Positions 20,852 through 37,694 are shown, counted from the stretch's first letter. The stretch is DNA of 64,000 nt from Minisyncoccota bacterium (GCA_035627655.1 DASPLI010000001.1:259355-323354), one strand, 5' to 3'. The notes: generated from the sequence alone by a model not told the origin. Program-made: numbers and translations.

Positions 20852-20863
20852 CGACCACTAGCA

Positions 20864-20897: not shown

Positions 20898-20898
20898 C

Positions 20899-21529: not shown

Positions 21530-21557
21530 GCTGAAGGGCTGCATAGTGCAGCCCTTC

Positions 21558-21670
21558 TTGCATATTCAGAGGTACCCCTGTATAGTGCCCGAGTCGCTAT
21601 GTCCTGCGGGACCACTAGCTCGGGAGAGGGAAGCCTCGAACGCGCCTAGTGAAGGCGCGCTTTATTTTTT
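21558..21670 (+). promoter_or_regulatory. S10-operon promoter (TTGCAT-N17-TATAGT) and structured leader ending in terminator-like hairpin CGCGCC-TAGTGAA-GGCGCG + TTTATTTTTT abutting the rplC ATG
   Basis: Hexamers 21558-21563/21581-21586; nested hairpins 21587-21660. Confidence 0.45.
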
Positions 21671-23427: not shown

Positions 23428-24270
23428 ATGAAAACCTACAAGCCATACACCAAGAGTCGTCGCAACATGACCACGCTTCCGTACCGGGAGCTCCTCTCTG
23501 GCGATCGCCCAATGAAGTCTCTCTTGAAGTCCAAGAAGGCGCAGGCAGGCCGCAACTCGCAGGGTCGCGTCACGACGCGCCATCAGGGCGGCGGGCATAA
23601 GAAGCGCTACCGCGATGTCGACTTCGTTTATAACAAGAAGGACATTCCGGCACGCGTCGAGACCGTTGAGTACGATCCGTACCGCACCGGCTTTATTGCG
23701 CGCGTTGTCTACGCAGACGGCGAGCGCCGCTACGTCCTTGCACCGAAGGACCTCAAGGTTGGCAGCACCTTCGTCGTCTCTGAAAACGCGCCGGTGAAAG
23801 TTGGTAACCGCCTTCCGCTTGGAAAGATTCCGACCGGCACCTTTGTCTACAACATTGAGCTCAAAGCAGGCGCAGGCGCAAAGCTTGCACGCTCTGCTGG
23901 TAACTACGCAGAAGTCGTCGCACATGACGCCGGATTCGCGCAGCTCAAGATGCCATCGACCGAAGTTCGCAAGATCACGGACAAGGCATGGGCATCCGTT
24001 GGCGCTGTGGGCAACGAAGAGTCCCGCCTCGTGAAGTTTGGTAAGGCTGGCCGCTCTCGCTGGCACGGCATTCGCCCGACCGTTCGCGGTACTGCCATGA
24101 ACCCGGTAGATCATCCGCACGGCGGCGGCGAAGGACGCCAGGGCCGCGGCCTCCGACGCGCAAAGTCCATGTGGGGCAAGCCAACCGGCAAGGGCCAGAA
24201 GACTCGCACCCCAAAGAAGTACTCGAACGTTTTCATCGTCTCGAGGCGTAAAGTGGGCAAGAAGGGCTAA
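23428..24270 (+). CDS. rplB: 50S ribosomal protein L2
   Basis: ATG 23428; PVDHPHGGGEG motif. Confidence 0.95.
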   Translation: MKTYKPYTKSRRNMTTLPYRELLSGDRPMKSLLKSKKAQAGRNSQGRVTTRHQGGGHKKRYRDVDFVYNKKDIPARVETVEYDPYRTGFIARVVYADGERRYVLAPKDLKVGSTFVVSENAPVKVGNRLPLGKIPTGTFVYNIELKAGAGAKLARSAGNYAEVVAHDAGFAQLKMPSTEVRKITDKAWASVGAVGNEESRLVKFGKAGRSRWHGIRPTVRGTAMNPVDHPHGGGEGRQGRGLRRAKSMWGKPTGKGQKTRTPKKYSNVFIVSRRKVGKKG

Positions 24271-24279
24271 TAAAGAACA

Positions 24280-24310
24280 AGCTCCGCAATCGCGGGGCTT
24301 TTTCTTTTCT
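24280..24310 (+). terminator. Intrinsic terminator directly after rplB (unusual position: S10 operon normally continues into rpsS)
   Basis: AGCTCCGC-AATC-GCGGGGCT + TTTTCTTTTC. Confidence 0.7.
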
Positions 24311-24349
24311 TGTATACTGCCGGCAGACTTGTACGAAAGGAAACAAGCA

Positions 24350-25192
24350 ATGACCGCGATACGCATCAAAGAGCTCGCGGAGATCGGACTGGTGTACATC
24401 AGTTACCCGCCCGAGCTGCGTGCTGCCATGGCAAAAGCAATGGAGTCCTGGAGAGTGTTCTACGCGCTCCCGGATGAGCAGAAGCTTCGCTTCGGCTATA
24501 TTCCTGACGCCAAGACGAGCGGCAACGGCTACGAACTCAAAGGCAAGGCCGGCGATGTGGACCGTAAAGAGAACATTCACCTGCGCCCCATCGTTCGCGA
24601 CGAGCTTATGGAGGCAGCGCATCGCGTTGACTCGGTGATCGCTCCGCGGTTCATCGAAGACGCGCTTGCCTTGAATCCGCTCATCGCTCCGCTCTTGCGA
24701 GCGTTTGGTGAAGCGGTTGAACGCGAGTACGACGTGCCCGGGTTCGCCGACGACATTATGGCCAAGCAGTCCGAATGGTTGCTGCGGTTCCTGCACTATC
24801 CGGGAGGCCGCAAGGTGGGCGAGGTGATCGCGCATCCGCATGTCGACAAAGGAGGATTCTCACTTCACCTCGACGAAAGTCATGGTGGCGTGCAGCGCCT
24901 CTCCTACGGCACGCGGGAGTGGGAACCGATGCCGCTCTCTCACAAGGAGACGGCCATCTTCACCGGTACCGGACTTCAGCATCGTTCGCAATGTCGCTTG
25001 CGTGCACTCAGCCACCGCGTGGTGGCGGTGCCGGGTGCTGCTGAAGAAGGTCGGGATTCCGCTGTCTGCTTCGTCGACTTTGCGCATCGCCGCTACTTCA
25101 ACAAAGAGAAGTTCGGCTCGCAGCAAGACTGGGCGCCAGGCGCGTTCTACGACATGCCGTTTGAAGAATACGACAAGCTCTTCATTGACTAA
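24350..25192 (+). CDS. 2-oxoglutarate/Fe(II)-dependent oxygenase superfamily protein (isopenicillin-N-synthase-like)
   Basis: HPHVDKGGFSLHLD (HxD) ... LSHRVV (distal His) pattern; ATG 24350 after GAAAGGAAACAAGCA. Confidence 0.55.
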   Translation: MTAIRIKELAEIGLVYISYPPELRAAMAKAMESWRVFYALPDEQKLRFGYIPDAKTSGNGYELKGKAGDVDRKENIHLRPIVRDELMEAAHRVDSVIAPRFIEDALALNPLIAPLLRAFGEAVEREYDVPGFADDIMAKQSEWLLRFLHYPGGRKVGEVIAHPHVDKGGFSLHLDESHGGVQRLSYGTREWEPMPLSHKETAIFTGTGLQHRSQCRLRALSHRVVAVPGAAEEGRDSAVCFVDFAHRRYFNKEKFGSQQDWAPGAFYDMPFEEYDKLFID

Positions 25193-25195
25193 GGA

Positions 25196-25233
25196 AACGG
25201 CCCGGGATACTCCCCGGGCCGTTCTCTCGTTTA
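25196..25233. terminator. Bidirectional hairpin terminator
   Basis: AACGGCCCGGG-ATACTCC-CCGGGCCGTT. Confidence 0.6.
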
Positions 25234-25240
25234 TGACAAG

Positions 25241-26041
25241 TTAGCGGTAGCGAGTCTTGAGAAGATCAGCAAGATCGCTTCGCGAGATGCGTGCTTCCTG
25301 GGTGCCGAGCGCCCATGGGCCAACCTGATACGGCGGGAAGATAAGGACGAGATCGGCACCATCAAGATAGAACGTGGTGAAGTTGCTTATCTGAGCCTCG
25401 GTTCCCGCATCAATCATACTGGTGTCCATCTCCGACTGCGGGATGTTCATCGCCTGCGCAATCTTTGGATAAAGGATGGCACGGGAAGTTTCGGAGAGTA
25501 CAGGGAGGAAGTTTGCGCCCGGGGTAAACAAGTCGTCGATCGTCAGTTCTTCGCCGCTCATGCGGTCAAACGTAAACGTCTTGTAGTAGGCATTCGGATG
25601 CGCACCCATCGTATCGGCATAGATGAGGTAAATGTAAGAGAGCGTTACGGGTGACGTTCGTGTTTCGTACTCCATGCCGAATGCGAACTTCCGATCTCCG
25701 CCAAGACCCATCATATCGATGTCTGCTTGAGTGAGCGTCGCAAGACCGCTGTCCGTCTTGAATTGCGCGATCTGCGCTTCAGCAAAGGTTTTCATGAGTG
25801 CGACGGCAGCTGCATCGGCTTGTGCGCCCGCAGTCGCGCGAAGTGGGGTGTCGCCCGGGTAGGTGACGGCAATTTCGTGGTACTGGCCGTCCTCGGTGAT
25901 GTACTGAGGGCCGGAAACGGAGCTTCCCTCAGGGGCAAGCTCGATACCTGGGGAAGGGCGGGAGAGTACATACCAGAGCACGCCTCCAGCAAGGGCAAGA
26001 ACGACGACTGCAGCAACGACAGGCAAGGGTTTAAGTTCCAT
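25241..26041 (-). CDS. N-terminally membrane-anchored protein with DUF3298/DUF4163-like (RsiV C-terminal-like) domain
   Basis: GAHPNAYYKTFTFDRMSGEELTIDDLF pattern typical of DUF3298. Confidence 0.5.
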   Translation of the reverse strand: MELKPLPVVAAVVVLALAGGVLWYVLSRPSPGIELAPEGSSVSGPQYITEDGQYHEIAVTYPGDTPLRATAGAQADAAAVALMKTFAEAQIAQFKTDSGLATLTQADIDMMGLGGDRKFAFGMEYETRTSPVTLSYIYLIYADTMGAHPNAYYKTFTFDRMSGEELTIDDLFTPGANFLPVLSETSRAILYPKIAQAMNIPQSEMDTSMIDAGTEAQISNFTTFYLDGADLVLIFPPYQVGPWALGTQEARISRSDLADLLKTRYR

Positions 26042-26111
26042 ATACGTTCCATCATAGCCTACCTTGACTTTGTCTTGAAAATGTCGTAAACCGCGGACAG
26101 CACTTGCTTTT

Positions 26112-26130
26112 TCTGTCTACTTAGTGTACA
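26112..26130. promoter_or_regulatory. Palindromic candidate operator TAGTGT-N7-ACACTA in divergent promoter region upstream of PP2C gene
   Basis: Same half-sites and spacing as site upstream of pnuC (49709-49727). Confidence 0.45.
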
Positions 26131-26218
26131 AATGACACTAGGTAGCGAAATGGCGCTGCAGTTCCTTGAAAGGACCCATAACCCATTGCATCTAATCAAT
26201 TGAAAGGGGGTTGATCCC

Positions 26219-27052
26219 ATGGAGCTACTTCCGTTCTCGGTCGCCGGCGGTTCAGTCCCCGGTACCGAGCACACCAAGCCAGGGCAACCCGGCTGGACCA
26301 ACAACCAAGACGCATTCGCATGGTCGCAGGTACCAGGCGCACTTGCCGCTGTCGTTTGTGACGGCTGCGGAGGCGCGCCAAAGAGCGAAGTTGGGTCGCA
26401 GCTCGCTGCACCCTTCATCGCCTTGCGGCTCGCAGAACTGTGTCGAAGCATGAGCGTCGATGAGGCGCTCCTACTCGTCAATCTTCAGTTGAAGAATTTC
26501 TTGAGTGCGACCGCCAACCACTTGGCGCACAGCGTTCATGATGTTCCCAACATCGCAGGTGACTACTTCCTGTTCACGGTGCTCGGCGTCGTCATGACGC
26601 CCGAGCGTACCGTGATCTTTGAAGCGGGGGATGGCGTCTACGCCGTAAATGGCGAAGTCGTATGCATCCCGCCTTATCCCGATAACGCGCCGCCCTACTT
26701 GGGGCATCGTCTGACGGGGTGGTATCCGCAAGAGAAGATCGGTATTCGCATCCGTGCGGATCTGCCGACAGCGAAGGTCAACACCATTCTTATCGGCACC
26801 GACGGAGTCGCAGACGCGATAGCCGTCGCCGATGAGTTACTTCCCGGCAAACGACAGGGAGAGGTTTTCGGACCGATCCAACAATTTGTCGAGAACGATC
26901 TCTTCGTTCGTAATCCAGACGCAATTCGTCGGCGCCTCGCGCTTGCGAATCGCGAGCTGGTAGACGGAGAACATATCAAGAAAGGTCTGCTGCCAGACGA
27001 CACGACTCTCGTTGTCGTGCAGCGGCGGATCGAAGGAGGCAGCAATGCCTGA
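26219..27052 (+). CDS. PP2C-family (PPM) Ser/Thr protein phosphatase
   Basis: GxxHxxNQD, VCDGCGG, GTDGV, DDTTLVVV blocks; RBS AAGGGGG. Confidence 0.75.
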   Translation: MELLPFSVAGGSVPGTEHTKPGQPGWTNNQDAFAWSQVPGALAAVVCDGCGGAPKSEVGSQLAAPFIALRLAELCRSMSVDEALLLVNLQLKNFLSATANHLAHSVHDVPNIAGDYFLFTVLGVVMTPERTVIFEAGDGVYAVNGEVVCIPPYPDNAPPYLGHRLTGWYPQEKIGIRIRADLPTAKVNTILIGTDGVADAIAVADELLPGKRQGEVFGPIQQFVENDLFVRNPDAIRRRLALANRELVDGEHIKKGLLPDDTTLVVVQRRIEGGSNA

Positions 27053-28910
27053 CTATGTCATCAACGGCAGAACGCTTACGCTTCGGCCAAAAGACGCAGT
27101 CGGGAAGGGAGGAGAAGCGGACGTCTTCATCGAAGGCGGACGCGCGATCAAGATCTACAAGTCGCCGCGTCACCCGGACTTTACGGGCGACCCTGAAGCG
27201 CAAGCTGCGGCGCGCGATCGGATCGAAGAGCATCAGCGAAAACTCCCCGCATTCCCGCGCGGGCTTCCGGGGCGAGTCATCGTCCCGTCGGAGCTCGTGT
27301 ACGACACACACGGTCGCATTGCCGGCTACAGCATGAAGCCCCTCTTGGGTGCTGAAGTACTGTATCGGTACGGCGAACGTTCCTTCCGCGATGCCGGCGT
27401 CAAAGACGAAACGGCGGTCGCGGTTCTTGCCGACCTTCGCGGCACGGTAGAAGCCGTGCATAACGCGAATGTCGTCATCGGCGATTTCAACGACCTCAAC
27501 GTACTCGTCCTCGGACGAAACGCGCATCTGATTGACGCAGACAGCATGCAGTTCGGATCGTTCTATACGCGCGTGTTCACGACGAAATTCGTGGACCCGC
27601 TCATCTGCGATCCGAGAGCGAAGGCGCTCATCATGCGGGAGCCGCACAACAAAGCTTCCGACTGGTACGCCTACGCTGTCATGCTGATGCAGACACTACT
27701 GTTCGTAGGACCCTATGGCGGCGTGTATGCGCCGCAGGATCCTACCAAGCGGATTCCGCACGATCTGCGGCCGCTTCGGCGGGTGACGGTGTTTGACGGA
27801 GACGTCAGATATCCGAAACCTGCACGCCACTACCGCATCCTTCCGGATGACCTTCTCGAGTACTTCAAAAAAACCTTCGAGAAGGACGAACGCGTCGTGC
27901 CGCCTGCGCGCCTCGTCGAGAGCCTCCGGTTCACGACGTGTGCAAAGTGTGGCACCAATCATGCGCGGGCTCACTGCCCGTCCTGCGTGCACGTTACGGC
28001 GCCCATGCAGAAGGAAGTCCATAAAGGAGGCATCTCTGCCTTCAAGGAATTCTCGACTGACGGCGTCATACTGCATGCAGTGCTTGATCGCGATACGTTG
28101 CGGTTCGTTTATCACGACACGCAGATGTATCGGCGGGAGGATGGTTCTGAGCTCGCTTCTGGCGCGCTTGATCCACACTTCCGTTACCGCATTAGCGGCA
28201 CCAAAACGATCATGGGTCGCGGCGAACACGCCATCGTCTTTGACGGTGGGCGTCGCGATCAACTTGCAGTTGAGTCCTACGGACTCTTGCCCCTCTTCGA
28301 CGCCAACGCGAAGAACGTGTTCTTCGTGCGCGACGGAGGGTTGTGGCGTATCGGCACGCTCGGGATCTCGTATCCTGAGCGCTACGGAGACGTGCTTTCC
28401 GGCCAGACGCTGTTCTGGGTCGGAGAGCAACTTGGTTTCGGTTTGTATCGGGCGGGGGAGCTCTCACGCTTCTTCGTCTTCGATGCGAATCGAGCGGGTA
28501 TCAACGATTCGGTCAAACTTCCGCCGCTACGGGGGAAGATCGTCGATGCGACTTGTTCCTTCGGCGATGATCGGATCTGGTTCCTTGTCTCGACCGCTTA
28601 CGGCGGGAAGACGACGAACTACTGCTACGTCCTCGACGGACGAGGCGCACTCCTTGGACAGGCCGAAGCAGAAGCCGGAGACGGCAGCTGGCTCTCGACT
28701 CTCCGAGGCAAGTGCGCAACGAAAGGATTTCTCCTTGCGGCGACGGACGAGGGCGTAACGCGGATTGAATCCGCTAACGGTCTTGTTCAAGTCGCGAAGG
28801 AGTTTCCTGCGACTGCTGAGTTTGTCGACGCCGAAACGCGGTTGCTCCTTGGTTCCCAAGGGCTCTATGCGATTCGGCGCGGCGAAATCTGGAAACTAGT
28901 CCTCAAATAG
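27045..28910 (+). CDS. Protein-kinase-like (PKL/APH-type fold) protein with central CxxC...CxxC zinc ribbon and C-terminal beta-rich domain
   Basis: VGKGGEADVF...AIKIYK (Gly loop + Lys), HNANVVIGDFNDLNVLV and IDADS catalytic-like blocks; ATG overlaps PP2C stop (ATGCCTGA) after GAAGGAGG. Confidence 0.6.
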   Translation: MPDYVINGRTLTLRPKDAVGKGGEADVFIEGGRAIKIYKSPRHPDFTGDPEAQAAARDRIEEHQRKLPAFPRGLPGRVIVPSELVYDTHGRIAGYSMKPLLGAEVLYRYGERSFRDAGVKDETAVAVLADLRGTVEAVHNANVVIGDFNDLNVLVLGRNAHLIDADSMQFGSFYTRVFTTKFVDPLICDPRAKALIMREPHNKASDWYAYAVMLMQTLLFVGPYGGVYAPQDPTKRIPHDLRPLRRVTVFDGDVRYPKPARHYRILPDDLLEYFKKTFEKDERVVPPARLVESLRFTTCAKCGTNHARAHCPSCVHVTAPMQKEVHKGGISAFKEFSTDGVILHAVLDRDTLRFVYHDTQMYRREDGSELASGALDPHFRYRISGTKTIMGRGEHAIVFDGGRRDQLAVESYGLLPLFDANAKNVFFVRDGGLWRIGTLGISYPERYGDVLSGQTLFWVGEQLGFGLYRAGELSRFFVFDANRAGINDSVKLPPLRGKIVDATCSFGDDRIWFLVSTAYGGKTTNYCYVLDGRGALLGQAEAEAGDGSWLSTLRGKCATKGFLLAATDEGVTRIESANGLVQVAKEFPATAEFVDAETRLLLGSQGLYAIRRGEIWKLVLK

Positions 28911-28939
28911 GTTGAGGACCATCACAACGGAGACGTAAC

Positions 28940-30028
28940 ATGGCTCAATCTGTAGCCAGACAACTTCCCACCCCGCCGCTCTTCAATCCGAAGAACGCGG
29001 GCAACTGGGGCTATCGCCCCGACCAGCGTGCAATCTTCGAAACCGCCGCTGCCTGGAAAGGCCAACACGGTCTCAAGGCAGCGCGGCTCGATGGACAAAA
29101 AGTCATGCTGCTGCTGATCGACGTGCAGAAGGACTTCTGCCATCCGGAAGGCGCCCTCTACGTGGGCGGCCGGTCGGGTCGCGGTGCGATCGACGACTCG
29201 GCGCGCATTGCCGAGTTCATCTATCGCAATCTGAACGTCGTCTCCGACATCGCGACGACCTTGGATACGCACTTCGCGTACCAGATCTTCTCGCCGTCAT
29301 TCGTCGTCGACGAGAGCGGACAGCCGCTCAAGCCGTTCGACGTCGTGCTTGAAAACTGCGACATCATGCGCGCGGGCGTGTGCGTCGGGAAGGCTTCGGT
29401 CAGCCCGGCCGCCGCCGCGGTCGTCGCCAACGGCGACTACGCGACGCTGCAAAAGCAGTTCGAGTATTACTGCAAGACGCTTGGCCAAGGCGGCAAATAC
29501 AACCTCATCATGTGGCCCGAGCACTGCTTGCTCGGGTCCGAGGGCCACACCCTGGTCGGCGTCATTCACGAAGCGCGTCTCTTCCACGCGTACGCCCGCG
29601 CCTCGCAGTCGCACTGCGAGATCAAGGGCGGCAGCCCGTACACCGAGAACTACTCGGTGCTACAGCCGGAAGTGATGACCACGTTCGACGGCAAAGCCCT
29701 CCCGGGCGTGCAGAAGAACGCGCGATTCATCAAAATGCTGCTCAACTACGACCGCGTTATCGTCGCGGGCCAGGCGGGCAGTCACTGCGTGAAGAGTTCG
29801 ATCGACGACTTCCTCGCGGAAATCGTCGTGCAGGACCCGGCGCTTGCGCGCAAGGTCTACGTGCTCGAAGACTGCATGTCCGCAGTCACCGTGCCTGACG
29901 GCAAGGGCGGTTTCATCGCCGACTACACGCCGGACATGGACGCCGCGCTCGCCAAATTCGGCAACGCCGGCATGCATGTCGTGAAGTCCACAACGCCAGT
30001 CTCCGACTGGCCGGGCTTCCTGCAGTAA
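28940..30028 (+). CDS. pncA: Nicotinamidase (isochorismatase-fold), long form
   Basis: LLLIDVQKDFC, DTH metal site, IVAGQAGSHCVKSS catalytic Cys block closely parallel to E. coli PncA motifs. Confidence 0.7.
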   Translation: MAQSVARQLPTPPLFNPKNAGNWGYRPDQRAIFETAAAWKGQHGLKAARLDGQKVMLLLIDVQKDFCHPEGALYVGGRSGRGAIDDSARIAEFIYRNLNVVSDIATTLDTHFAYQIFSPSFVVDESGQPLKPFDVVLENCDIMRAGVCVGKASVSPAAAAVVANGDYATLQKQFEYYCKTLGQGGKYNLIMWPEHCLLGSEGHTLVGVIHEARLFHAYARASQSHCEIKGGSPYTENYSVLQPEVMTTFDGKALPGVQKNARFIKMLLNYDRVIVAGQAGSHCVKSSIDDFLAEIVVQDPALARKVYVLEDCMSAVTVPDGKGGFIADYTPDMDAALAKFGNAGMHVVKSTTPVSDWPGFLQ

Positions 30029-30102
30029 CGGTCATCCGGGCGTGTGCGGCGAGAGTAATCTCGCCGCATGGGCCCATCACATCAACCAGGGAAGGACATC
30101 CC

Positions 30103-30888
30103 ATGAACTCAACTGACGTTGGCGCTCTATTTAGCGCCGCAGGTAAAGACGGAACGCTCTCCAAAGGAGCGCTCTCGGTGCTCGACGCCGAAGACATCGG
30201 CGCCGTGATCAACCAAGGACTCGGCATCACACCCGACGACATCACTGCAAGCGAGGTCAACAACGTGTTCATGCTGCTCGACGACTCCAGTTCGATCGAG
30301 CATGCGGGCAACACGCAGCATGTTCGCGACGGGCACAACCTGATCGTGGACTCGCTACTGAAGACCAAGCAGGCGGATGCCATCATCATGTGCGGTCGCG
30401 CCCTCAATCGCGGGCAGATCTACCCGTGCGTTCGCCTCCCGGATGTGCCGCGTCTTGACGCGAGCAACTACAATCCGTCGGGCGGCACGCCGTTGTATGA
30501 CGAATCGACGATCATTCTCGGCATGGCGGCCGCCAAGCATCAGCAGTTTGCTGACAATGGCGTGCCGTGCCGGACGATCGTGCCGATCATCACCGACGGC
30601 GCCGACGTGGGCTCCCGCAAGCAGCGGCCAGACCACGTGCGGACCATCGTGCAAGATCTTCTGCGCACCGAGCAGTTCATCGTGATCGGCGTCGGCATCG
30701 ACGACGGCGTGACGAACTTCCGGTCGGTGTTCCAAAGCATGGGCATCGACGACCGCTGGATCCTGACCCCAGGCAATTCGCCAAGCGAAATTCGCAAGGC
30801 GTTTGCGATGGTGTCCCAGTCGGTATCGCGTGCGAGCCAGAACGCGCAAGCGTTCAGCACGGCTGCAATGGGCGGGTTTGCGGGGTAA
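30103..30888 (+). CDS. von Willebrand factor A (vWA) domain protein, TerY-like
   Basis: MIDAS DxSxS (LLDDSSSI), GGTPL, ITDGAD. Confidence 0.75.
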   Translation: MNSTDVGALFSAAGKDGTLSKGALSVLDAEDIGAVINQGLGITPDDITASEVNNVFMLLDDSSSIEHAGNTQHVRDGHNLIVDSLLKTKQADAIIMCGRALNRGQIYPCVRLPDVPRLDASNYNPSGGTPLYDESTIILGMAAAKHQQFADNGVPCRTIVPIITDGADVGSRKQRPDHVRTIVQDLLRTEQFIVIGVGIDDGVTNFRSVFQSMGIDDRWILTPGNSPSEIRKAFAMVSQSVSRASQNAQAFSTAAMGGFAG

Positions 30889-30921
30889 GATCCGCAGACC
30901 TCGGGTCCTGTTCTTTACAGG

Positions 30922-30946
30922 AAGCAGGAGGAGCATGATGCTCCTC
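30922..30946. repeat. Near-perfect 25-bp palindrome CAGGAGGAGCAT-G-ATGCTCCTCCTG
   Basis: 12-bp inverted arms around single central base. Confidence 0.6.
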
Positions 30947-30960
30947 CTGCAATCCTCGCT

Positions 30961-31024
30961 GAGATTCCTTCGGGAATCTCCTTTATAGGAGGCTTGAATC
31001 CTTCGAGCCTCCTTCAAGGAGAGA
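30961..31024 (+). promoter_or_regulatory. Structured leader element copy A (outer TCTCCTT/AAGGAGA helix enclosing GGAGGCT...AGCCTCC hairpin; 3' arm overlaps ARH RBS)
   Basis: Paralogous to 32039-32088 with compensatory stem substitutions. Confidence 0.5.
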
Positions 31025-31029
31025 GTTCT

Positions 31030-31992
31030 TTGCAACAACAGATCTCGCTCATCGAACGCTATCGCGGCGCGATGATTGGCGTACATGTCGGAGATGCGCT
31101 TGGGGCACCATACGAAACGTGGCCCGAAGAACGTATTCTCGCGGACATGCAGGCGCGCGACGGGCTCGTGCTCTTCGACTACGAAGACCCGTGGGGTAAG
31201 GACGGCCTCTTTCCGGCCGGATGCCCGACGGACGACTCGGAGTTGACCGCCGTACTCGCCGAACATCTTATTGAGAACCCAGAAGATCTTGAAGATCTCT
31301 ACGCACGCTTTCGCAGCTGCGTGGTGGATCGCAAGAGCCGCTTGTGCGCGCTTCCAGCATATGGATTTGGCGGCACAACGCGACGGGCGCTCAAGGAGCC
31401 GACGTATCGGGAAGCAGTTCAGCAGCCTAATACGCGGCCGCCGATTCCAAGCAACGGAGCGTTGATGCGGGCAGTGCCGATACCGCTTCGGTTCTTCGGT
31501 AGTCCGCGACAGGTCTCCGACTGCGCGTACGTTACATCGCTTATGACGCACCGGCATCCGCAAGCCATCGACGCATCCGTCGTCTATGCGCATCTGCTCT
31601 ATGGCGTTCTCGAACACGGGAACTACGAGCAGGCGGTCGCACGACTCGTCGGCATGTTGCCCGGTCTCACTGTCGACCAGGCGATTATCGACATCTTCCA
31701 TTCGCCGGCTCAAAAACCGGTGTTTGAAGGAAAGTTCGGCGGCGGCGCGCTCCATACACTTTGTGTGGTGCATTGGGCCGTCTCGACATCCACTTCCTTT
31801 GAAGAGGGGATGACGAAAGCAATCACGATCGGTAGTGATACCGATACGTACGGCGCGGTCGCTGGCGGTCTCCTCGGCGCCACCTACGGTGTACGAGGGA
31901 TCCCAGCCAAGTGGAAACATGGATTGCTTGGCGGCGTTCGTATGTGGCAGCTTGCTGAGAAGCTGCATGCGCTCGCCAATCCAGCGTCGTAA
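31030..31992 (+). CDS. ADP-ribosylglycohydrolase family protein (DraG/ARH-like)
   Basis: IERYRGAMIGVHVGDALGAPYE N-terminal signature, DDSELT, GSDTDTYGAVAGGLLGATYG C-terminal signature; likely TTG start at 31030 after AAGGAGAG (ORF-track start 30994 also TTG). Confidence 0.75.
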   Translation: MQQQISLIERYRGAMIGVHVGDALGAPYETWPEERILADMQARDGLVLFDYEDPWGKDGLFPAGCPTDDSELTAVLAEHLIENPEDLEDLYARFRSCVVDRKSRLCALPAYGFGGTTRRALKEPTYREAVQQPNTRPPIPSNGALMRAVPIPLRFFGSPRQVSDCAYVTSLMTHRHPQAIDASVVYAHLLYGVLEHGNYEQAVARLVGMLPGLTVDQAIIDIFHSPAQKPVFEGKFGGGALHTLCVVHWAVSTSTSFEEGMTKAITIGSDTDTYGAVAGGLLGATYGVRGIPAKWKHGLLGGVRMWQLAEKLHALANPAS

Positions 31993-31996
31993 TGCG

Positions 31997-32024
31997 TGGT
32001 GTGCGGGCCTTCGGGCCTGCACAC
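31997..32024 (+). other. GC hairpin with UUCG loop (GTGTGCGGGCC-TTCG-GGCCTGCACAC) after ARH gene
   Basis: 10/11-bp stem, no T-run. Confidence 0.4.
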
Positions 32025-32038
32025 TCCGCTTGTTCTAG

Positions 32039-32088
32039 CGAGATCTCCTTTATGGAGCGTTTGAGTTTCTCGAACGCTCCTCAAGGAA
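32039..32088 (+). promoter_or_regulatory. Structured leader element copy B upstream of nadE
   Basis: GAGATCTCCTTTATGGAGCGTTTGA...TCGAACGCTCCTCAAGGAAA; stem GGAGCGTT/AACGCTCC. Confidence 0.5.
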
Positions 32089-32142
32089 ATTGTGATCTTT
32101 GAGAACTATCGAACTCACCACTTCTAACAGAAGGAGGACTAC

Positions 32143-34014
32143 ATGCTTGGTTCACCGGTCCGGATCGTCGTCGCGCAAGTGGGGGCGGTTCCGGGTGATG
32201 TTGCGACCAACTTCGCAAACATATTCGACACGATTGCGACTGCGCGACGCGCGGCCGCCGATATCGTGGTGTTGCCGGAGCTTGCAACCACGGCATATGT
32301 GCTCGGCGATCGCTGGGAATACGACGCGTTCATTCGCGAAACCCAAGAAATCAACGAGCGGATCCGCGAAGCCTCCCGAGGACTCACTGTCATCTGGGGC
32401 TCGATCAAAGCGGATTTCGGCAAGATGGGCGAAGACGGTCGCGTGCGAAAATACAACGCCGCCTTCATCGCATCTCACGGCCGCTGGATCTCAAACGGCA
32501 CGCTGGACGGGTTCGTTCCCAAGACGAATCTGCCTAAGTACCGCATCTTCGACGATGCGCGCCACTTCTACCCGGCGGGGAAACTCGCCGCGGAAATGCA
32601 GACGCGTCTTGAAACGCTGCTCGCACCCTTCCCGCTGGTCATCAAAGGCAAGCGCTACAACATTGCGCTCTCTGTCTGCGAAGACCTCTGGCAGGACGAG
32701 TACAACGAGAAACCGGCGCAGATCTACAGTGCGCACGACTCCGATCTCATCATCGACATCTCGTGCTCGCCGTGGACGTACGGCAAGTGGCATGCGCGCG
32801 AAAATATGCTGAAGCGCCGCGTGAAGGACACGGGCATCCCGATCCTCTACGTGAACGCGATCGGCCTCGAAAACAACACCAAGAACTTGATTTGGTTCGA
32901 TGGCGACTCAGCGCTCATCGACGCCGAAGGACGGTTCCGGTGGCGCGGCCAACAGCACAAAGAGCAGATCCACATCCTCGATCTCGATGATCTCGACGGC
33001 CCACTCCCTGAGCGGACCTATACGGGTATCAAAGAGATTCACGACGCGACAGTCGCGGCAATGAAAGCCTTCTACGCTCCGTTCGCACGGGTCGTCGTCG
33101 GGCTTTCAGGCGGCATCGATTCGGCGCTCGCGCTCGCGCTTCTCACCGAAGCGCTCGGCGCCAAGCGACTGCTTGCGGTCAACATGCCGACCGAGTTCAA
33201 CTCGGAAACTACCCGAGGACTCGCAGCGCTCTGCGCTCGGAACCTCGGTGTCGAGTACGTCATCTCTCCGATCCAAGAAGCGTACGAGGAAGAACTTCGT
33301 GCGCTTCAAAAGCTCGGCATGACGCCGTCCGCACTCGATCGGGAAAACATCCAGGCAGTCTTGCGCGGCACGCGTCTCAACGCGATCGCCAAAGCGCAAG
33401 GCAGTATGCATGGCGGCGCCGGCGCATTCACCTGCAACGGCAACAAGACCGAGATGGCCCTCAACTACTTCACCCTCTATGGGGACGGAGCGGGCGCTGC
33501 GGCCTTTCTAGCCGATCTCTGGAAGGGTCAGATCTACGAGCTTGCACGCTACATCAACGAGCGTGCGGGCCGCGAGCTGATCCCGCAAGGGATTCTCGAC
33601 ATCGTGCCGTCGGCGGAACTCTCGAAGGATCAAGCGGTCGATGAGGGGAAGGGAGATCCTATCTTCTTCCCGTATCACGACCAGCTCCTGCGGGCGTTCA
33701 CCGAACTGCGCTGGGATCCGACCACGGTGCTCGAGCACTTGTGCGAAAGCAACGAGGCGCTCGAGCAGAAGCTCGGCTGTGCTCCCGGCACCGTCGCTCG
33801 GTACTTCAACTCGCGCCGCACGCTCGTCGATAACCTCGAATGGGCGTGGCGCCAGTACAACACCGAGTTCAAGCGCGGACAGACGCCGCCGGTCTTCCTC
33901 ACGTCGCGCCGAGCCTTCGGGTTCGACCGACGCGATACGATCGCCGCGGGATACCTGACGAAGCGCTACCAAGAACTCAAGCAAGCGTACTTGGCCGGCG
34001 AACTCGTCGCGTGA
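32143..34014 (+). CDS. nadE: Glutamine-dependent NAD+ synthetase (N-terminal CN-hydrolase/nitrilase domain + C-terminal NAD synthetase domain)
   Basis: 623 aa; nitrilase-type N-domain; GLSGGIDSAL PP-loop in C-domain; RBS AGGAGG. Confidence 0.88.
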   Translation: MLGSPVRIVVAQVGAVPGDVATNFANIFDTIATARRAAADIVVLPELATTAYVLGDRWEYDAFIRETQEINERIREASRGLTVIWGSIKADFGKMGEDGRVRKYNAAFIASHGRWISNGTLDGFVPKTNLPKYRIFDDARHFYPAGKLAAEMQTRLETLLAPFPLVIKGKRYNIALSVCEDLWQDEYNEKPAQIYSAHDSDLIIDISCSPWTYGKWHARENMLKRRVKDTGIPILYVNAIGLENNTKNLIWFDGDSALIDAEGRFRWRGQQHKEQIHILDLDDLDGPLPERTYTGIKEIHDATVAAMKAFYAPFARVVVGLSGGIDSALALALLTEALGAKRLLAVNMPTEFNSETTRGLAALCARNLGVEYVISPIQEAYEEELRALQKLGMTPSALDRENIQAVLRGTRLNAIAKAQGSMHGGAGAFTCNGNKTEMALNYFTLYGDGAGAAAFLADLWKGQIYELARYINERAGRELIPQGILDIVPSAELSKDQAVDEGKGDPIFFPYHDQLLRAFTELRWDPTTVLEHLCESNEALEQKLGCAPGTVARYFNSRRTLVDNLEWAWRQYNTEFKRGQTPPVFLTSRRAFGFDRRDTIAAGYLTKRYQELKQAYLAGELVA

Positions 34015-34159
34015 CGTTCGATGTGCAGGAGGGTTTCGGCCCTCCTGCATACCGTCCTTTCCTCGGGAAAGGACTTCGTATGGGGCGCCTAAGCAGATGC
34101 TTGGACGCCGCAACGGAGTTACAGATCTTTTTCACCTATAGACAACAGAAAGGAAACCA

Positions 34160-35527
34160 ATGACTGACTTCGTGGGGCGCGTACTGCGTCCTGAAAAAGA
34201 CGATTGGGTAATCCGGTCGCTTCTCGACGTGGACTTTTACAAGTTCACGATGGGGCTCTTTATCTTCCTGCTGCATCGCGGCGTGGAGGTGGAGTTCTGC
34301 CTGATCAACCGAAACCTAAAGCTTCCCCTCGCCGATATCGTCGACGAGGAGGAGCTTCGGCGACAGCTCGATCACGTGCGTACGCTGTGCCTCTCGCGCA
34401 CGGACGTCGTGTACTTGCGTGGCCAGGATGTGTACGGGCACAACATGTTCCCGGAAAACTATCTGGCGTTCTTGCGGCAGCTCGCGCTGCCCGAGTACAC
34501 GCTTCGGCGCGTCGGCAATCAGTATGAGCTGAAGTTCAAGGGTTCGTGGGAAACGGTGACGTTTTGGGAAACCATCGCGCTCGCCATCATTTCGGAACTC
34601 TTCTACCGCGCGCTCATGCAGTCGATGCCTGAGCACGAATTGCGCGTGCTATTTGGCCGCGCGATTGATCGCCTCTATCGGAAGCTCGAGAAGCTCAAGA
34701 CGCGTCCCTGGATTCGGTTCGCCGATTTCGGGCAGCGTCGCCGCTTCAGCTTCCTCTGGCAGCGGTTCGTTGATCAGACGTGTCGCGAGGTCGTGCCGCA
34801 GCAATTTGTGGGGACCAGTAACACCTGGATGGCCTTCAATCAGGACTTGGTGCCCATCGGTACCAATGCGCACGAGCTTCCCATGGTCCTCACCGCGCTT
34901 GCGGAGGGGGACGAAGCGAAGCGGTACGCGCAGTATCAGGTGCTCAGGGAGTGGGGAGGCATGTTCCCGCAAAACGCCCTGCGCATCATGCTGCCGGATA
35001 CCTACGGCTCCGAGCAGTTCTTCCAGAACATGCCGGCCGATCTTGCCGAAGAAGTTGCCGAAACCTGGCGCGGCCAGCGTCAGGATTCGGGCGATCCGAT
35101 CACGGAATGCCGCCGCTACACATCGTGGCTGCGCGGTTATATCCAGCCGGCACGCATTCGTTCAGAGCGCCTCAACATCTTTTCCGACGGCCTCGACATC
35201 GATCCCATCTTTGAGTTCGATGACCAGGTCAGAGACGAGATCCTCATCTCAAACGGGTGGGGTACGACGCTCACGAACGACTTCATCGATTGCCATCCGC
35301 GACCAGACGACCGTGCGGTCGTGCGCGGCAAAACGCTCGAGCTGACGAACCGTCAGTTGTGGCGTGGGCACTCGATCGTCTGCAAAGTCGAGTACGCCAA
35401 CGGGCGTCCGGCGGTAAAACTTTCAAACAACATTAACAAGGCGACCGGTCCTTCCAAGGAAGCGATCGCCGAGTACGTGCGCATCTTTGGCAACGAAGGT
35501 CGCGCAGCGCAGGATGTTGTCGTCTAA
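34160..35527 (+). CDS. pncB: Nicotinate phosphoribosyltransferase
   Basis: SLLDVDFYKFTMG, FGQRRRFS, GTSNTW, QDSGDP blocks align with E. coli PncB. Confidence 0.88.
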   Translation: MTDFVGRVLRPEKDDWVIRSLLDVDFYKFTMGLFIFLLHRGVEVEFCLINRNLKLPLADIVDEEELRRQLDHVRTLCLSRTDVVYLRGQDVYGHNMFPENYLAFLRQLALPEYTLRRVGNQYELKFKGSWETVTFWETIALAIISELFYRALMQSMPEHELRVLFGRAIDRLYRKLEKLKTRPWIRFADFGQRRRFSFLWQRFVDQTCREVVPQQFVGTSNTWMAFNQDLVPIGTNAHELPMVLTALAEGDEAKRYAQYQVLREWGGMFPQNALRIMLPDTYGSEQFFQNMPADLAEEVAETWRGQRQDSGDPITECRRYTSWLRGYIQPARIRSERLNIFSDGLDIDPIFEFDDQVRDEILISNGWGTTLTNDFIDCHPRPDDRAVVRGKTLELTNRQLWRGHSIVCKVEYANGRPAVKLSNNINKATGPSKEAIAEYVRIFGNEGRAAQDVVV

Positions 35528-35574
35528 AAATACTTGAACCCCCTACGCGAACATGTTCGCGTAGGGGGTTCTTT

Positions 35575-36462
35575 TTATGGTCGTGTGCGAGTCAGGAGTC
35601 GATGACCAAGCGTGTGGTGCCAGGGCACCAAGCGCTCGATCAGCGCATCGCGCTTCACCCAGTGGACGCTATCCGCGTCGTCTGCCGCAGTGGGCGTACC
35701 GGAGAGGTACGTGCCACGGAAGAAGGTGGTCGTGATGCCGTCCGTGCTGTTGCGATAGCGAGGATCGTTGATCGGGTCTGACCCCAACCACGTGAGTTCG
35801 CTGATCTCAACGCCCGGCACTTCTTCGCCAAACTCGCGCGGAGCGGCGTCTTCGTCGCGTTCGCCGACATTGACGTGTCCGCCCGGGAAGGACAACAGAC
35901 CTTCGTGCCGATTCTTGCCGATGAGAAGTACCTCATCGGTCGACGGCCGTTCGATCGCGATGTCGACCGTGCGGAACGCAATCGGATACCGACTGTTTAC
36001 CTGCCAGATCGCCGCGTCGCGCGCGTCCCGGGTATTCATGAGTCGCGCCGACTTCCGCAGGGCGGTGCCGCTTTCGCGCGCATCTTCCGACGCAAGCTCA
36101 ACGGTCGGGAATGTGCCCGAGTAGAGCGGTAGGAAGCTGTCGCGCGATCCGTAGAGGGTGATCGGGTTGAATGGAAATTCTTTCCGGATCAGTGCATCCA
36201 GATCGCGCGACCAGAAGGTCGGGTTGATCGGATGATCGAAGATCTCAAGGATCTTCGCCCGCGGATACGCGGATTTCATCATGTCCCGCCGCGCTTCGAA
36301 GGGAAGCGGGTTTTCCCGCGTCGCCTGACCTCCGGTAGAGGCAAGGACGACGAGCAGGTAGGCATGATTGTCGCGAGCGGTGTTGAGCACATGCAAATGG
36401 CCGCGGTGAAGATAGGGCACTTGGAAGCGTCCTACCACCACCCCAACCGATGGCAGTCCCAT
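35575..36462 (-). CDS. nadM: Bifunctional nicotinamide/nicotinate mononucleotide adenylyltransferase - Nudix (ADP-ribose pyrophosphatase) fusion, NadM-Nudix type
   Basis: N-term GVVVGRFQVPYLHRGHL (HxGH nucleotidyltransferase), C-term Nudix box GGHVNVGERDEDAAPREFGEEVPGV; ATG 36460-36462 after AAGGAGA. Confidence 0.75.
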   Translation of the reverse strand: MGLPSVGVVVGRFQVPYLHRGHLHVLNTARDNHAYLLVVLASTGGQATRENPLPFEARRDMMKSAYPRAKILEIFDHPINPTFWSRDLDALIRKEFPFNPITLYGSRDSFLPLYSGTFPTVELASEDARESGTALRKSARLMNTRDARDAAIWQVNSRYPIAFRTVDIAIERPSTDEVLLIGKNRHEGLLSFPGGHVNVGERDEDAAPREFGEEVPGVEISELTWLGSDPINDPRYRNSTDGITTTFFRGTYLSGTPTAADDADSVHWVKRDALIERLVPWHHTLGHRLLTRTRP

Positions 36463-36475
36463 GGCATTTCTCCTT

Positions 36476-36491
36476 TTCTTGCTAGAAAGAA
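36476..36491. promoter_or_regulatory. 16-bp palindrome TTCTTGCTAGAAAGAA abutting nadM Shine-Dalgarno
   Basis: 7/8 matched inverted half-sites. Confidence 0.35.
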
Positions 36492-36495
36492 CGGA

Positions 36496-36524
36496 TGAAA
36501 AAAGGCAGGCTGGAATGCCTGCGC
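36496..36524 (-). terminator. Hairpin + U-run (minus orientation) between nrtR-like gene and nadM (terminator or attenuator)
   Basis: GCAGGC-ATTCCA-GCCTGC followed by TTTTTTCAT on minus strand. Confidence 0.55.
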
Positions 36525-36562
36525 TTTCTGTATTCAATCGTAAAAAAGGGGGAGTGTCAATG

Positions 36563-37249
36563 TTACAGCACCTCGATTTCCTTCACGTCCTTGGATGCAA
36601 ACGTATAGAGCTGGGCAGGGCGGGAACGGCCCCCGCGACGCTTTTTCGGGAGTTCCTTCAGGATCCCGAGCTTGAGGATTTTCTTGCGGAAGTTTCGCTT
36701 GTCGAGATCGCGCTCCAAAATGCATTCATAGGTGCGCTCAAGCTCGGTGAGCGTGAATTCCTCAGGCATCAGCTGTGCGATGAGGGTGGTGTACGTGATG
36801 CGCGAGCGCAGGCGCGCCCGGGCCGCTGCAAGCACTTCGTTGTGATCGTAGGCGAGGGTTGTCTTTTCGTGTGCCGGGCTCCACCAGGAATCGTCTGTGT
36901 CTTTGCGCTCCTCCTCCGTCAGGGCATCCCAGGGGACGCAGGCGATATAAGCGACCGCAACCGCCCGGCTGCGGGGGTCTCGATTCACTGCGCTGAAGGT
37001 CGCCAGCTGCTCCATATAGATGTGGGAGGAGGAAATGCCGGTACGACCCTTCAGGTGGCGAATAGCGGCCTCTTCAGCCGTTTCTGTGGCATCCAGGAGA
37101 CCTCCGGGAAGGCCGGGGACCCCCGGGAAGTGGGGTGGGCGGTTCACCCGGATGAGGCGGACCAAGAGGGTCGCCTCCCGAATCGTAAAGAGCGCGATGT
37201 CCGCAGCAAGGACCGCAAACCGCAACGGCTCCGGATTTTGAGGGGTCAT
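36563..37249 (-). CDS. nrtR: Nudix-related transcriptional regulator (NrtR-like: degenerate Nudix domain + C-terminal winged-helix)
   Basis: Degenerate Nudix box GLPGGLLDATETAEEAAIRHLKGRTGI (catalytic Glu positions altered), basic helix-rich C-terminus; gene context with NAD salvage genes. Confidence 0.55.
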   Translation of the reverse strand: MTPQNPEPLRFAVLAADIALFTIREATLLVRLIRVNRPPHFPGVPGLPGGLLDATETAEEAAIRHLKGRTGISSSHIYMEQLATFSAVNRDPRSRAVAVAYIACVPWDALTEEERKDTDDSWWSPAHEKTTLAYDHNEVLAAARARLRSRITYTTLIAQLMPEEFTLTELERTYECILERDLDKRNFRKKILKLGILKELPKKRRGGRSRPAQLYTFASKDVKEIEVL

Positions 37250-37292
37250 ATGGACACTATAGCAAGGCGCCAGGCCGAATGATACGAAAAGT

Positions 37293-37347
37293 TTGACATA
37301 CCTTCGCGTTTCCTATAGATTTTGCGTATCCGCCTCAGGCGGCTTTT
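37293..37347 (+). promoter_or_regulatory. Promoter TTGACA-N17-TAGATT and leader hairpin CCGCC-TCA-GGCGG + CTTTT upstream of rpsS
   Basis: Consensus hexamers 37293-37298 / 37316-37321. Confidence 0.55.
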
Positions 37348-37355
37348 GACTACTC

Positions 37356-37694
37356 ATGTCCCGCTCACTCAAGAAAGGACCCTACGTCGACGTCAAGTTG
37401 ATGAAGAAGGTTAAAGACAAGAAACCCGCATCCGCTGGGGTTATTCGAACATGGGCGCGCCAGTCGCAGATTGCGCCTGAGTTCGTCGGCTTTACCTTTG
37501 GCGTCCATAACGGCAAGACGCACGTGGATGTCCTCGTCACCGAGGATATGGTCGGCCACAAGCTTGGCGAATTCTCGCCAACCAAGAAGTTCCTCCGTCA
37601 CGGCGGAAAGATGCAGAAGGAGCTTGAGCAAAAGAAGAAGGAGGCTGAGATTGCCGCTGCAAAGGCGTCAAAGTCAGAGCCGGCTAAGAAATAA
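37356..37694 (+). CDS. rpsS: 30S ribosomal protein S19 with Lys-rich C-terminal extension
   Basis: Canonical S19 core. Confidence 0.93.

Follow-up and report, generated by a model that had tools for sequence, protein, structure and literature searches.

What separates rplB from rpsS in this member of the candidate phyla radiation (CPR), and how does a set of genes for the salvage of nicotinamide adenine dinucleotide (NAD) come to lie between them? The window, which is the whole 64,000-nucleotide stretch analysed here, comes from a 742,741-bp contig in a metagenome-assembled genome of Candidatus Paceibacterota, and its proteins are identical to NCBI entries HYD93116 to HYD93135. The ribosomal genes follow the canonical order by Pfam (tuf, rpsJ, rplC, rplD, rplW, rplB, then rpsS, rplV and rpsC), and 11 genes occupying about 13.1 kb, a distance which the original prediction from the sequence had given as about 13 kb, separate rplB (end 24270) from rpsS (start 37356). 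The locus is probably a composite of a break in the ribosomal cluster that tolerates insertions and of an 11.1-kb NrtR regulon block, with a four-gene cassette embedded in it, that was acquired at this site or relocated to it.

The junction between rplB and rpsS

The ribosomal genes on both sides of the gap, the signals next to them and the two gap genes nearest to rplB are the following.

23428 to 24270, plus strand: rplB (L2), which closes the upstream ribosomal transcription unit (Pfam Ribosomal_L2_N/C)
24279 to 24300, plus strand: terminator-like hairpin and T-run, 3' of rplB (sequence)
24371 to 25192, plus strand: 2-oxoglutarate (2OG)-Fe(II) oxygenase-like gene, ancestral occupant of the gap outside the NAD block (Pfam 2OG-FeII_Oxy 5e-4, below the gathering cutoff)
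25241 to 26041, minus strand: gene of a DUF3298/RsiV-like membrane-anchored protein, ancestral occupant of the gap (Pfam DUF3298 1.8e-12)
37293 to 37342, plus strand: rpsS promoter-like element TTGACA-17-TAGATT (37293-37321), then leader hairpin CCGCC-tca-GGCGG and CTTTT
37356 to 37694, plus strand: rpsS (S19), with which the downstream ribosomal transcription unit begins (Pfam Ribosomal_S19)

The start of rplB was read from the sequence as Met43 of the listed open reading frame (ORF). A terminator after rplB and a consensus promoter belonging to rpsS had been predicted, and both hold: the hairpin with its T-run lies at 24279-24300, and TTGACA-17-TAGATT at 37293-37321 is kept in relatives and is the sole 10/12 sigma70-like match within 20-39 kb. 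The region as a whole has no enrichment of promoter-like or terminator-like matches, and the rpsS promoter call is based on the conservation of the element in relatives, not on regional enrichment.

The same junction was compared in 80 rplB loci from GTDB species representatives, whose L2 identity is 61-86% and whose labels are mostly Paceibacterota, Parcubacteria or Patescibacteria, with some other automated labels; rplB and rpsS are both in view in 64 of them. The gaps of these 64 relatives have a median length of 921 bp, and the widest measures 7.4 kb; they are at most 200 bp in 8 loci, at least 500 bp in 53 and longer than 1.5 kb in 19, and four further loci have no rpsS within 10 kb of rplB. 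The contents of the gap also vary, and include a DUF3298 gene, a small membrane protein, an uncharacterised protein of 220-230 aa or rplJ-rplL. The element TTGAC-N17-20-TAnnnT is found within 120 nt 5' of rpsS in 48 of the 64 loci, including those with gaps of about 100-160 bp, against a background of 1.9% of 120-nt windows (binomial P ~1e-68). In the family of the window (L002-L011) this promoter-like element is followed by a GC hairpin, which has compensatory stem changes, and then by a CTTTT run; a hairpin near rpsS is present in 27 of the 64 Paceibacterota loci and sits 11-18 nt ahead of the rpsS start. It could be a 5' leader or an attenuator of the rpsS unit; the rpsS leader has no Rfam match, and a permissive Rfam scan gave chance-level matches only.

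Because the gaps are wide, their contents vary and the promoter-like element of rpsS is found across the clade, the rplB/rpsS junction of Paceibacterota is a predicted boundary between two transcription units that tolerates inserted genes. The original prediction held the break to be unusual, since this junction is exceptionally conserved in bacteria, and that view does not stand, in this clade, against a median gap of 921 bp and a promoter-like element in 48 of 64 relatives. No description of such a clade-wide break was found in the literature searched on the S10 operon in Parcubacteria. The break is relevant to phylogenomic pipelines in which the ribosomal block is taken to be contiguous, and the element ahead of rpsS bears on the coordination of ribosomal protein synthesis in CPR bacteria.

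Not all of the 13 kb is new to the site. Orthologs of the two genes nearest to rplB occupy the same gap in relatives, the DUF3298 gene in the 9 closest ones (35-48% identity, minus strand) and the 2OG oxygenase, whose PDB matches are thymine dioxygenase and AdaV (2e-4), in L020 (50% identity), so both genes are ancestral to it. In all 64 relatives the gap lacks any gene for PP2C, the kinase, PncA, vWA, ADP-ribosylglycohydrolase (ARH), NadE or PncB, and the lineage-specific part is therefore the 11.1 kb from about 26.1 to 37.25 kb, which carries PP2C-kinase-PncA-vWA-ARH-NadE-PncB on one strand and NadM-NrtR on the other. Instead of the single 13-kb island first proposed, only this block from PP2C to NrtR was added. 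The comparison of synteny that the original prediction had called for thus bears it out in part: the block is absent from the gap elsewhere, but the split with its promoter-like element belongs to the whole clade.

Compared with the canonical S10 operon (rpsJ-rplC-rplD-rplW-rplB-rpsS-...), the window keeps the same ribosomal gene order, but its cluster is broken at rplB/rpsS (13 kb) and at rpsJ/rplC (0.8 kb). At the second break (20852-21670) rpsJ has its own terminator (20864-20889), and the 820 bp before rplC contain an ORF of 109 aa (20899-21228, minus strand) and a small membrane-protein-like ORF (about 21311-21529, plus strand), neither of which has a Pfam match; the same junction measures 0.8-4.8 kb in many relatives. 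The interval of about 2.3 kb (16932-19264) between fusA (14712-16931) and tuf (19265-20464), with ORFs such as 17518-18006 and 18292-18762 that have no Pfam matches, may be a further interruption of the translation-gene cluster. In three relatives (L054, L057 and L077) the rplB-rpsS gap holds rplJ and rplL, which encode L10 and L7/L12, together with two other conserved ORFs.

The NAD block, its cassette and its predicted operators

The genes and sites of the block, and of a second locus related to it by its operator, are given below in the order of the window.

26121 to 26141, no strand assigned: predicted NrtR operator TTAGTGTacaaatgACACTAG, 78 nt 5' of the PP2C gene (core 26122-26140; motif)
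26219 to 27052, plus strand: PP2C-type Ser/Thr phosphatase, cassette gene 1 (Pfam PP2C_2 1.7e-17)
27045 to 28910, plus strand: Ser/Thr protein kinase of 621 aa with a CxxC...CPxC Zn ribbon and a C-terminal beta-propeller (AlphaFold2/Foldseek, motifs)
28940 to 30028, plus strand: long-form nicotinamidase PncA of 362 aa, cassette gene 3 (motifs; weak PF00857 and PRK11609; NCBI name nicotinamidase)
30103 to 30888, plus strand: vWA protein of 261 aa with a full metal-ion-dependent adhesion site (MIDAS) motif and a conserved Ser-rich C-terminal tail, cassette gene 4 (motif, AlphaFold2/Foldseek)
30994 to 31992, plus strand: ARH (DraG/Tri1-like), accessory gene, start codon uncertain (Pfam ADP_ribosyl_GH 1.7e-55)
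32143 to 34014, plus strand: glutamine-dependent NAD synthetase NadE (Pfam CN_hydrolase and NAD_synthase)
34160 to 35527, plus strand: nicotinate phosphoribosyltransferase PncB (Pfam NAPRTase_N and NAPRTase)
35536 to 35571, no strand assigned: bidirectional terminator with a 16-bp stem, between convergent pncB and nadM (sequence)
35575 to 36462, minus strand: NadM-Nudix, an adenylyltransferase with an ADP-ribose pyrophosphatase-like domain (Pfam CTP_transf_like and NUDIX)
36552 to 36570, no strand assigned: possible weak site for NrtR, gAGTGTcaatgttACAgca, which overlaps a TTGACA and lies between nrtR and nadM (3 mismatches)
36563 to 37249, minus strand: NrtR, Nudix-related ADP-ribose-responsive repressor (Pfam NUDIX 8.4e-9 and NrtR_WHD 3.6e-25)
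49708 to 49728, no strand assigned: predicted NrtR operator TTAGTGTagattatACACTAA, overlapping the pnuC promoter, outside the rplB-rpsS gap (core 49709-49727; motif)
49741 to 51400, plus strand: pnuC, for a transporter of nicotinamide mononucleotide (NMN) or nicotinamide riboside, and the gene of a nadR-type NMN adenylyltransferase/ribosylnicotinamide kinase, second arm of the regulon

The phosphatase, kinase and vWA triad noticed in the original prediction is real, by the PP2C_2 profile and by the folds of the kinase and vWA proteins. What had been missed is that PncA, which was treated only as a salvage enzyme, is a fixed member of the same cassette. The end of the PP2C gene overlaps the kinase start by 8 nt, as it does also in Parcubacteria bacterium C7867-001 (L081), which suggests translational coupling. 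The kinase has no Pfam match and a single-sequence PDB search gave weak kinase matches only (E ~0.02), while the vWA protein has neither a Pfam vWA or TerY match nor a meaningful match in such a search; structures were therefore predicted for both. The kinase model (predicted local distance difference test, pLDDT, 88.8) has an N-terminal protein kinase fold, matched by Foldseek to STK17B, PknG and CASK, and a C-terminal beta-propeller matched to that of acylaminoacyl-peptidase. Its invariant residues are G20xGG, K36/K39, D147xxxxN152, D164 and C299/C302/C311/C314, and more than 1600 homologs were found. Foldseek matched the vWA model (pLDDT 88.2) to integrin I domains, to the A domains of vWF and to vWA domains from TFIIH and Rpn10 (E ~3e-7), and the MIDAS residues of the protein, D60xS62xS64, T129 and D165/D168, are invariant. 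In PncA, the catalytic Asp-Lys-Cys triad D61, K229 and C283 and the metal site D109, H111 and H195 (WPxHC) are invariant in 26 homologs; the family profile matches PDB chain 3r2j, a nicotinamidase from Leishmania, over the motifs DxQxDF and WPxHC, and the motifs also align to PDB chain 3pl1 (PncA). These motifs support the assignment of the 362-aa protein as a predicted nicotinamidase.

The four genes are kept together in distant bacteria. In 80 metagenome loci with kinase homologs at 26-55% identity the gene order is always PP2C, kinase, PncA (about 350 aa) and vWA (about 265 aa). Among the 46 of these loci that are at least 8 kb long and were used for counts, the neighbours of the kinase are

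vWA in 42 of 46, PP2C in 41 of 46 and PncA in 41 of 46 (core neighbours)
NrtR in 19 of 46
PncB in 8 of 46, NadE in 6 of 46, ARH in 6 of 46 and NadM in 4 of 46 (other NAD-gene neighbours)

Leptolyngbya sp. 'hensonii' and Stigmatella hybrida have the cassette together with NrtR, and the lists of kinase homologs also name Planctomycetota, Myxococcales and several CPR groups. PP2C-kinase-PncA-vWA is thus a fixed four-gene cassette conserved across phyla, and no description of it was found in the literature searched, which included papers on bacterial NAD regulation. An unbiased clustering of neighbouring ORFs in 61 kinase-bearing loci (metagenome and IMG/VR loci, L081, L083 and L164) adds an NAD kinase, an NMNAT-like gene, HAMP histidine kinases and unrelated genes to the known NadE, PncB and ARH, and contains no nucleases or other defence effectors. 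One ORF cluster with 19 loci was dismissed as a likely artefact, since in L134, the locus that represents it, it runs antisense to the vWA gene. A scan of IMG/VR with the kinase profile gave 15 loci (L165-L179), all on contigs of 42-545 kb, of which the L165 contig is the same as metagenome locus L089; they are probably cellular contigs flagged for proviruses, and none is a convincing phage-borne copy of the cassette.

The predicted operators connect the cassette with NAD metabolism. The 64 kb contain exactly two perfect copies of TAGTGT-N7-ACACTA, one ahead of PP2C and the other ahead of pnuC-nadR, and the estimated chance expectation for one exact palindrome of 12 specified bases in that length is about 0.004. 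Most NrtR motifs are 21-bp palindromes with a GT-N7-AC core (Rodionov et al. 2008, PMC2330246), and both strong sites of the window extend to 21-bp palindromes with this core. The site on the pnuC side is 13 nt 5' of pnuC, where it overlaps the -10 position of a TTGACA-17 promoter; pnuC matches Pfam NMN_transporter (7e-38) and nadR matches AAA_28, CTP_transf_like and TIGR01526 (7.6e-64). The possible weak site at 36552-36570 has a core identical to that of a site beside nrtR in L120, and its position equals that of the two strong sites of L007. No NrtR site with at most 2 mismatches was found before ARH, nadE or pncB or in the nrtR-rpsS spacer, where the best one has 3 mismatches. Over the cassette loci, 21 NrtR-type palindromes lie within 250 bp 5' of PP2C where 1.5 are expected (14-fold, Poisson P ~2e-17), a density of 1.58/kb against 0.11/kb elsewhere, and they form two lineage-specific variants, TTAGTGT-N7-ACACTAA and AAAGAGT-N7-ACTCTTT, which co-vary with lineage. 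A module for NAD homeostasis or salvage, one of the functions originally proposed, is the best-supported reading, with operators before PP2C and pnuC-nadR.

Two side observations concern these sites. In Leptolyngbya (L083) two extra NrtR-type palindromes (9854-9966) lie directly 5' of the kinase, besides the site before PP2C; there PP2C is separated from the kinase by an inserted ARH gene and an ORF of 86 aa, and Uma2-family genes break up the cassette. In the window, a gene for a 368-aa AAA_28 protein (53235-54341, plus strand), which has the domain of the ribosylnicotinamide kinase part of NadR, lies 2 kb past pnuC-nadR, and no NrtR site was seen nearby.

Nearly all of the enzyme calls first made were confirmed by profile search, the weak ones being backed by motifs or structure, and the NAD and ADP-ribose theme is correct by the identities of the genes. 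PDB matches of ARH are 2cwc (1.6e-22), Tri1 and DraG. The ORF of NadM-Nudix, which has a weak match to the NCBIfam PRK05379 family, reaches 36537, and its likely ATG is at 36462, as read from the ribosome-binding site and ATG in the sequence. NrtR has an N-terminal Nudix-like domain and a C-terminal winged helix of the NrtR type, and matches the NCBIfam model NF050029, 'ADPR responsive transcriptional repressor', at 3.9e-42 with 144 bits, under the 400-bit equivalog cutoff; its gene is divergent from the rpsS promoter and 106 bp away from it. One or two GC-rich perfect hairpins without a U-tract follow each gene from pncA to nadE (30029-30102, 30889-30993, 31993-32142 and 34015-34159), with possible roles in RNA stability, partial termination or internal promoters, and short TCTCCTTTAT(A)GGAG-like elements recur ahead of ARH and nadE. 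At the gathering threshold, an Rfam scan of the window gave a tmRNA and one tRNA only.

A related block is present in another genome. The closest kinase homolog (77% identity) belongs to C7867-001, which has PP2C-kinase-PncA-vWA-ARH-NadE-PncB on one strand and, on the other, NadM and NrtR with one more gene between them, at 52-76% protein identity over the block. This copy lies outside the ribosomal cluster, flanked by a histidine kinase and an MtN3-like gene and near ligA and gatCA. The block of the window is read as relocated or transferred within the lineage into a permissive site. Recent acquisition of the segment as a mobile genomic island (an integrative element), or a chimera of the metagenome assembly, is a very unlikely explanation. 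The source is a metagenome-assembled genome, the block is not at this site in the 64 relatives with both flanking genes, and GC content at third codon positions (GC3) is somewhat higher in pncA, vWA, nadE and pncB (0.76-0.83), as such an origin would have it; but the borders have no integrase, transposase or tRNA gene, a direct-repeat search across the island found short chance-like matches only and no flanking repeats, the GC content is close to that of neighbouring genes and the nearest homologous block belongs to a related Parcubacterium. Both junctions lie cleanly between genes and leave the ancestral DUF3298 gene and the rpsS promoter undamaged. The operator sequence also recurs unchanged at pnuC, at a distance of 12 kb, and in the relative L007, which indicates that the regulator and its sites are native to the lineage.

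In L007 (L2 78% and NrtR 60% identical) the genes nrtR, nadM-Nudix and nadV (Nampt) lie on the minus strand at 4842-8109, between rpsJ and rplC, with two operators (7229-7247 and 7294-7312) between nrtR and nadM-nadV. Salvage operons under predicted NrtR control thus fill gaps of the S10 cluster at two junctions in this family. From the location of the block, the original prediction had also suggested a reversible ADP-ribosylation system that acts on translation components; a wider form of this includes ribosomal components and a placement in the S10 operon for functional coupling. This reading, to which the position between rplB and rpsS, the divergence of nrtR from the rpsS promoter, the operon of L007 and the ARH gene would lend themselves, is extremely improbable, since the block contains no ADP-ribosyltransferase and all its intergenic gaps are at most 150 nt, the same block is at a non-ribosomal locus in C7867-001, no ribosomal protein query matched beside the cassette in 80 other loci, the junction holds unrelated genes in other relatives and the nrtR-rpsS spacer has no strong NrtR site.

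Proposed control of nicotinamide recycling

NrtR is a repressor, and ADP-ribose, a product of NAD consumption, releases it from its operators. The Preiss-Handler route is formed by PncA, PncB, a nicotinic acid mononucleotide (NaMN) adenylyltransferase and NadE, while nicotinamide riboside is salvaged by PnuC and NadR; NadM has a Nudix domain that hydrolyses ADP-ribose. In the model proposed here for the block as a composite, NrtR would bind the 21-bp palindrome TTAGTGT-N7-ACACTAA at PP2C and pnuC-nadR, and perhaps weakly before nadM, as the predicted operators suggest. NAD consumption would raise ADP-ribose and take NrtR off its operators. Derepression would allow nicotinamide to be recycled, PncA converting it to nicotinate, PncB to NaMN, NadM to nicotinic acid adenine dinucleotide (NaAD) and NadE to NAD, and would also turn on the uptake and use of nicotinamide riboside or NMN by PnuC-NadR. 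ADP-ribose would be hydrolysed by the Nudix domain of NadM and liberated from conjugates by ARH, so that both enzymes may feed back on the inducer. The kinase and PP2C may form a reversible phospho-switch gating the nicotinamidase, which is the committing step of nicotinamide salvage; the propeller would be a sensor, and the MIDAS-containing vWA protein with its Ser-rich tail an adaptor or a substrate, the conserved SQS...ASQ tail being the candidate region for phosphosites.

Several points weigh against this interpretation of the locus. The direction of the event fits an insertion here as well as a loss or relocation in relatives, and GC3 differs only mildly between the block (0.64-0.83) and the ribosomal genes (0.64-0.73). 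The palindrome is directly 5' of PP2C in only 15 of 51 loci under the criteria used. There is a single strong operator for some 9 kb of genes on the plus strand, which are split by GC hairpins without U-tracts, so ARH, nadE and pncB may escape co-transcription or control by NrtR. The whole-protein scores of the predicted nicotinamidase are under the Pfam and NCBIfam cutoffs, and its call comes from motifs and weak profiles. The target of the kinase in the putative phospho-switch is the weakest link of the model. A conflict role is also possible, since TerY-P-like triads elsewhere are linked to phage defence (PMC11090510).

A widely conserved but undescribed module tied to a nicotinamidase behind an ADP-ribose-sensing repressor suggests post-translational control of nicotinamide recycling in many bacteria, and the bacterial NAD-regulation papers searched describe no such control. 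NAD salvage is a lifeline of the ultra-small symbiotic CPR bacteria, and NAD and ADP-ribose are the currency of many phage-defence systems. It is possible, but doubtful, that the cassette is a previously unrecognised signalling device under ADP-ribose/NrtR control, which puts nicotinamide clearance under a phospho-switch and has spread horizontally in CPR, cyanobacteria, myxobacteria and planctomycetes. In its boldest version, a joint claim that is equally tentative, the device would act in an NAD-centred conflict between phage and host, for example by removing nicotinamide in NADase immunity or by starving Nampt-type NAD reconstitution by phages. Taken together with the signalling device, and with the same reserve, the universal rplB-rpsS adjacency might be systematically replaced in Paceibacterota by a terminator/promoter break that is a landing pad for accessory genes. 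Stigmatella and Leptolyngbya, which both carry the cassette, can be cultured, and the idea therefore lends itself to direct tests.

On a further and unlikely view, an anti-phage conflict system rather than one of housekeeping salvage would be formed by the block as a whole or, as a minimum, by the cassette together with ARH and NrtR. NrtR would switch the module on when a phage or toxin cleaves NAD or ADP-ribosylates proteins, the TerY-P-like triad would be the trigger, ARH would strip ADP-ribose off host proteins, and the nicotinamidase would remove nicotinamide and so starve Nampt-type NAD reconstitution by a phage or relieve the inhibition of NADase and sirtuin defences by nicotinamide. TerY-P and TerY-P-like triads (vWA, PP2C and a kinase with a Zn ribbon) accompany restriction systems, and a variant is a stand-alone defence (PMC10542128, PMC11090510); operons centred on ARG, in which Nudix-HTH regulators go with phosphatases and vWA proteins, are predicted to counter viral ADP-ribosylation (PMC9503650, section 3.8), and ARH has here no partner ADP-ribosyltransferase. 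The patchy distribution of the cassette across distant phyla at 50% identity or more suggests horizontal spread and fits such a role too. The recurrent neighbours, however, are NadE, PncB, NAD kinase and NMNAT, not nucleases, TIR, SIR2 or other effectors, ARH is optional (6 of 46 loci), the proteins are strongly conserved instead of fast-evolving, the IMG/VR matches are all on cellular-looking contigs, and PADLOC has no match for PP2C, kinase, vWA, PncA or ARH. A salvage regulon with an embedded cassette accounts for the block better than a defence system does on these grounds.

Elsewhere in the window, a tRNA-Ile with anticodon TAT (UAU) at 60803-60877 (minus strand) is unusual for bacteria, most of which read AUA with a lysidine-modified CAT tRNA. 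The segment 6001-9400 has a low GC content (0.44-0.46 against about 0.57 for the window) and may be foreign DNA; a gene for a 926-aa LCAT-like lipase/acyltransferase (6535-9315, minus strand) lies in it, beside a GDSL lipase gene (9365-10078).

Comparison with known systems

A catalogued defence system was considered and found no support: a PADLOC scan of the ten island proteins gave a weak Nudix match (PDC-S07) for NadM only, and at E <=0.01 no model matched PP2C, kinase or vWA, assuming that PADLOC includes TerY-P models. In the account given in PMC11090510, the TerY-P triad of Anantharaman et al. 2012 consists of a TerY-like vWA protein, a PP2C and a Ser/Thr kinase with a C-terminal Zn ribbon, and the TerY-P-like defence system is that of Gao et al. 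2020. The window has all three domain types, with the Zn ribbon directly after the kinase domain. It differs in its order, PP2C-kinase-X-vWA with the nicotinamidase as X, in the additional C-terminal beta-propeller of the kinase and in its context, which is NAD salvage with NrtR and not Ter, restriction or CoCoNuT, and it matches neither PADLOC nor the Pfam vWA model.

The ARG-centric systems, which are regulated by Nudix- or WYL-HTH repressors (Iyer et al. 2022, PMC9503650), share with the window an ARH without cognate ADP-ribosyltransferase, a Nudix-HTH repressor, a phosphatase and a vWA protein. Their tightly coupled phosphatases are of the rhodanese, calcineurin-like, HD or HAD types, whereas the only phosphatase of the window is a PP2C_2, and no kinase or nicotinamidase is described in them (PMC9503650), while the core of the window is kinase, PP2C, PncA and vWA. 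The presence of ARH in only 6 of 46 cassette loci also means that ARH is not the core.

The phage pathways NARP1 and NARP2 rebuild NAD after its cleavage to ADP-ribose and nicotinamide, by the pairs Adps and Namat or Nampt and Nmnat. The block of the window has the same functional goal of rebuilding NAD, but it uses PncA-PncB-NadM-NadE of the Preiss-Handler route instead of either phage pair and is cellular and controlled by a repressor. NadV and NadM of L007 are likewise chromosomal and under predicted NrtR control, unlike the phage-carried NARP.

Among the closest known systems are also the NrtR regulons described in PMC2330246. The window resembles them in its repressor, made of Nudix and winged-helix domains, and in its targets, which are of the pncA, pncB, nadE, nadM-Nudix and pnuC-nadR type; a draG-like ARH gene beside nrtR is known in Streptomyces (PMC2330246). 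It differs from them in that the operator leads into a PP2C and a Ser/Thr kinase, pncA is locked in the cassette and the block lies inside a ribosomal cluster; in PMC2330246 the terms 'protein kinase' and 'phosphatase' each have 0 occurrences, and the cassette was not found there. The NrtR regulon is a known kind of system and its NAD enzymes are ordinary, and what is new is the embedded cassette and the systematic break of the operon.

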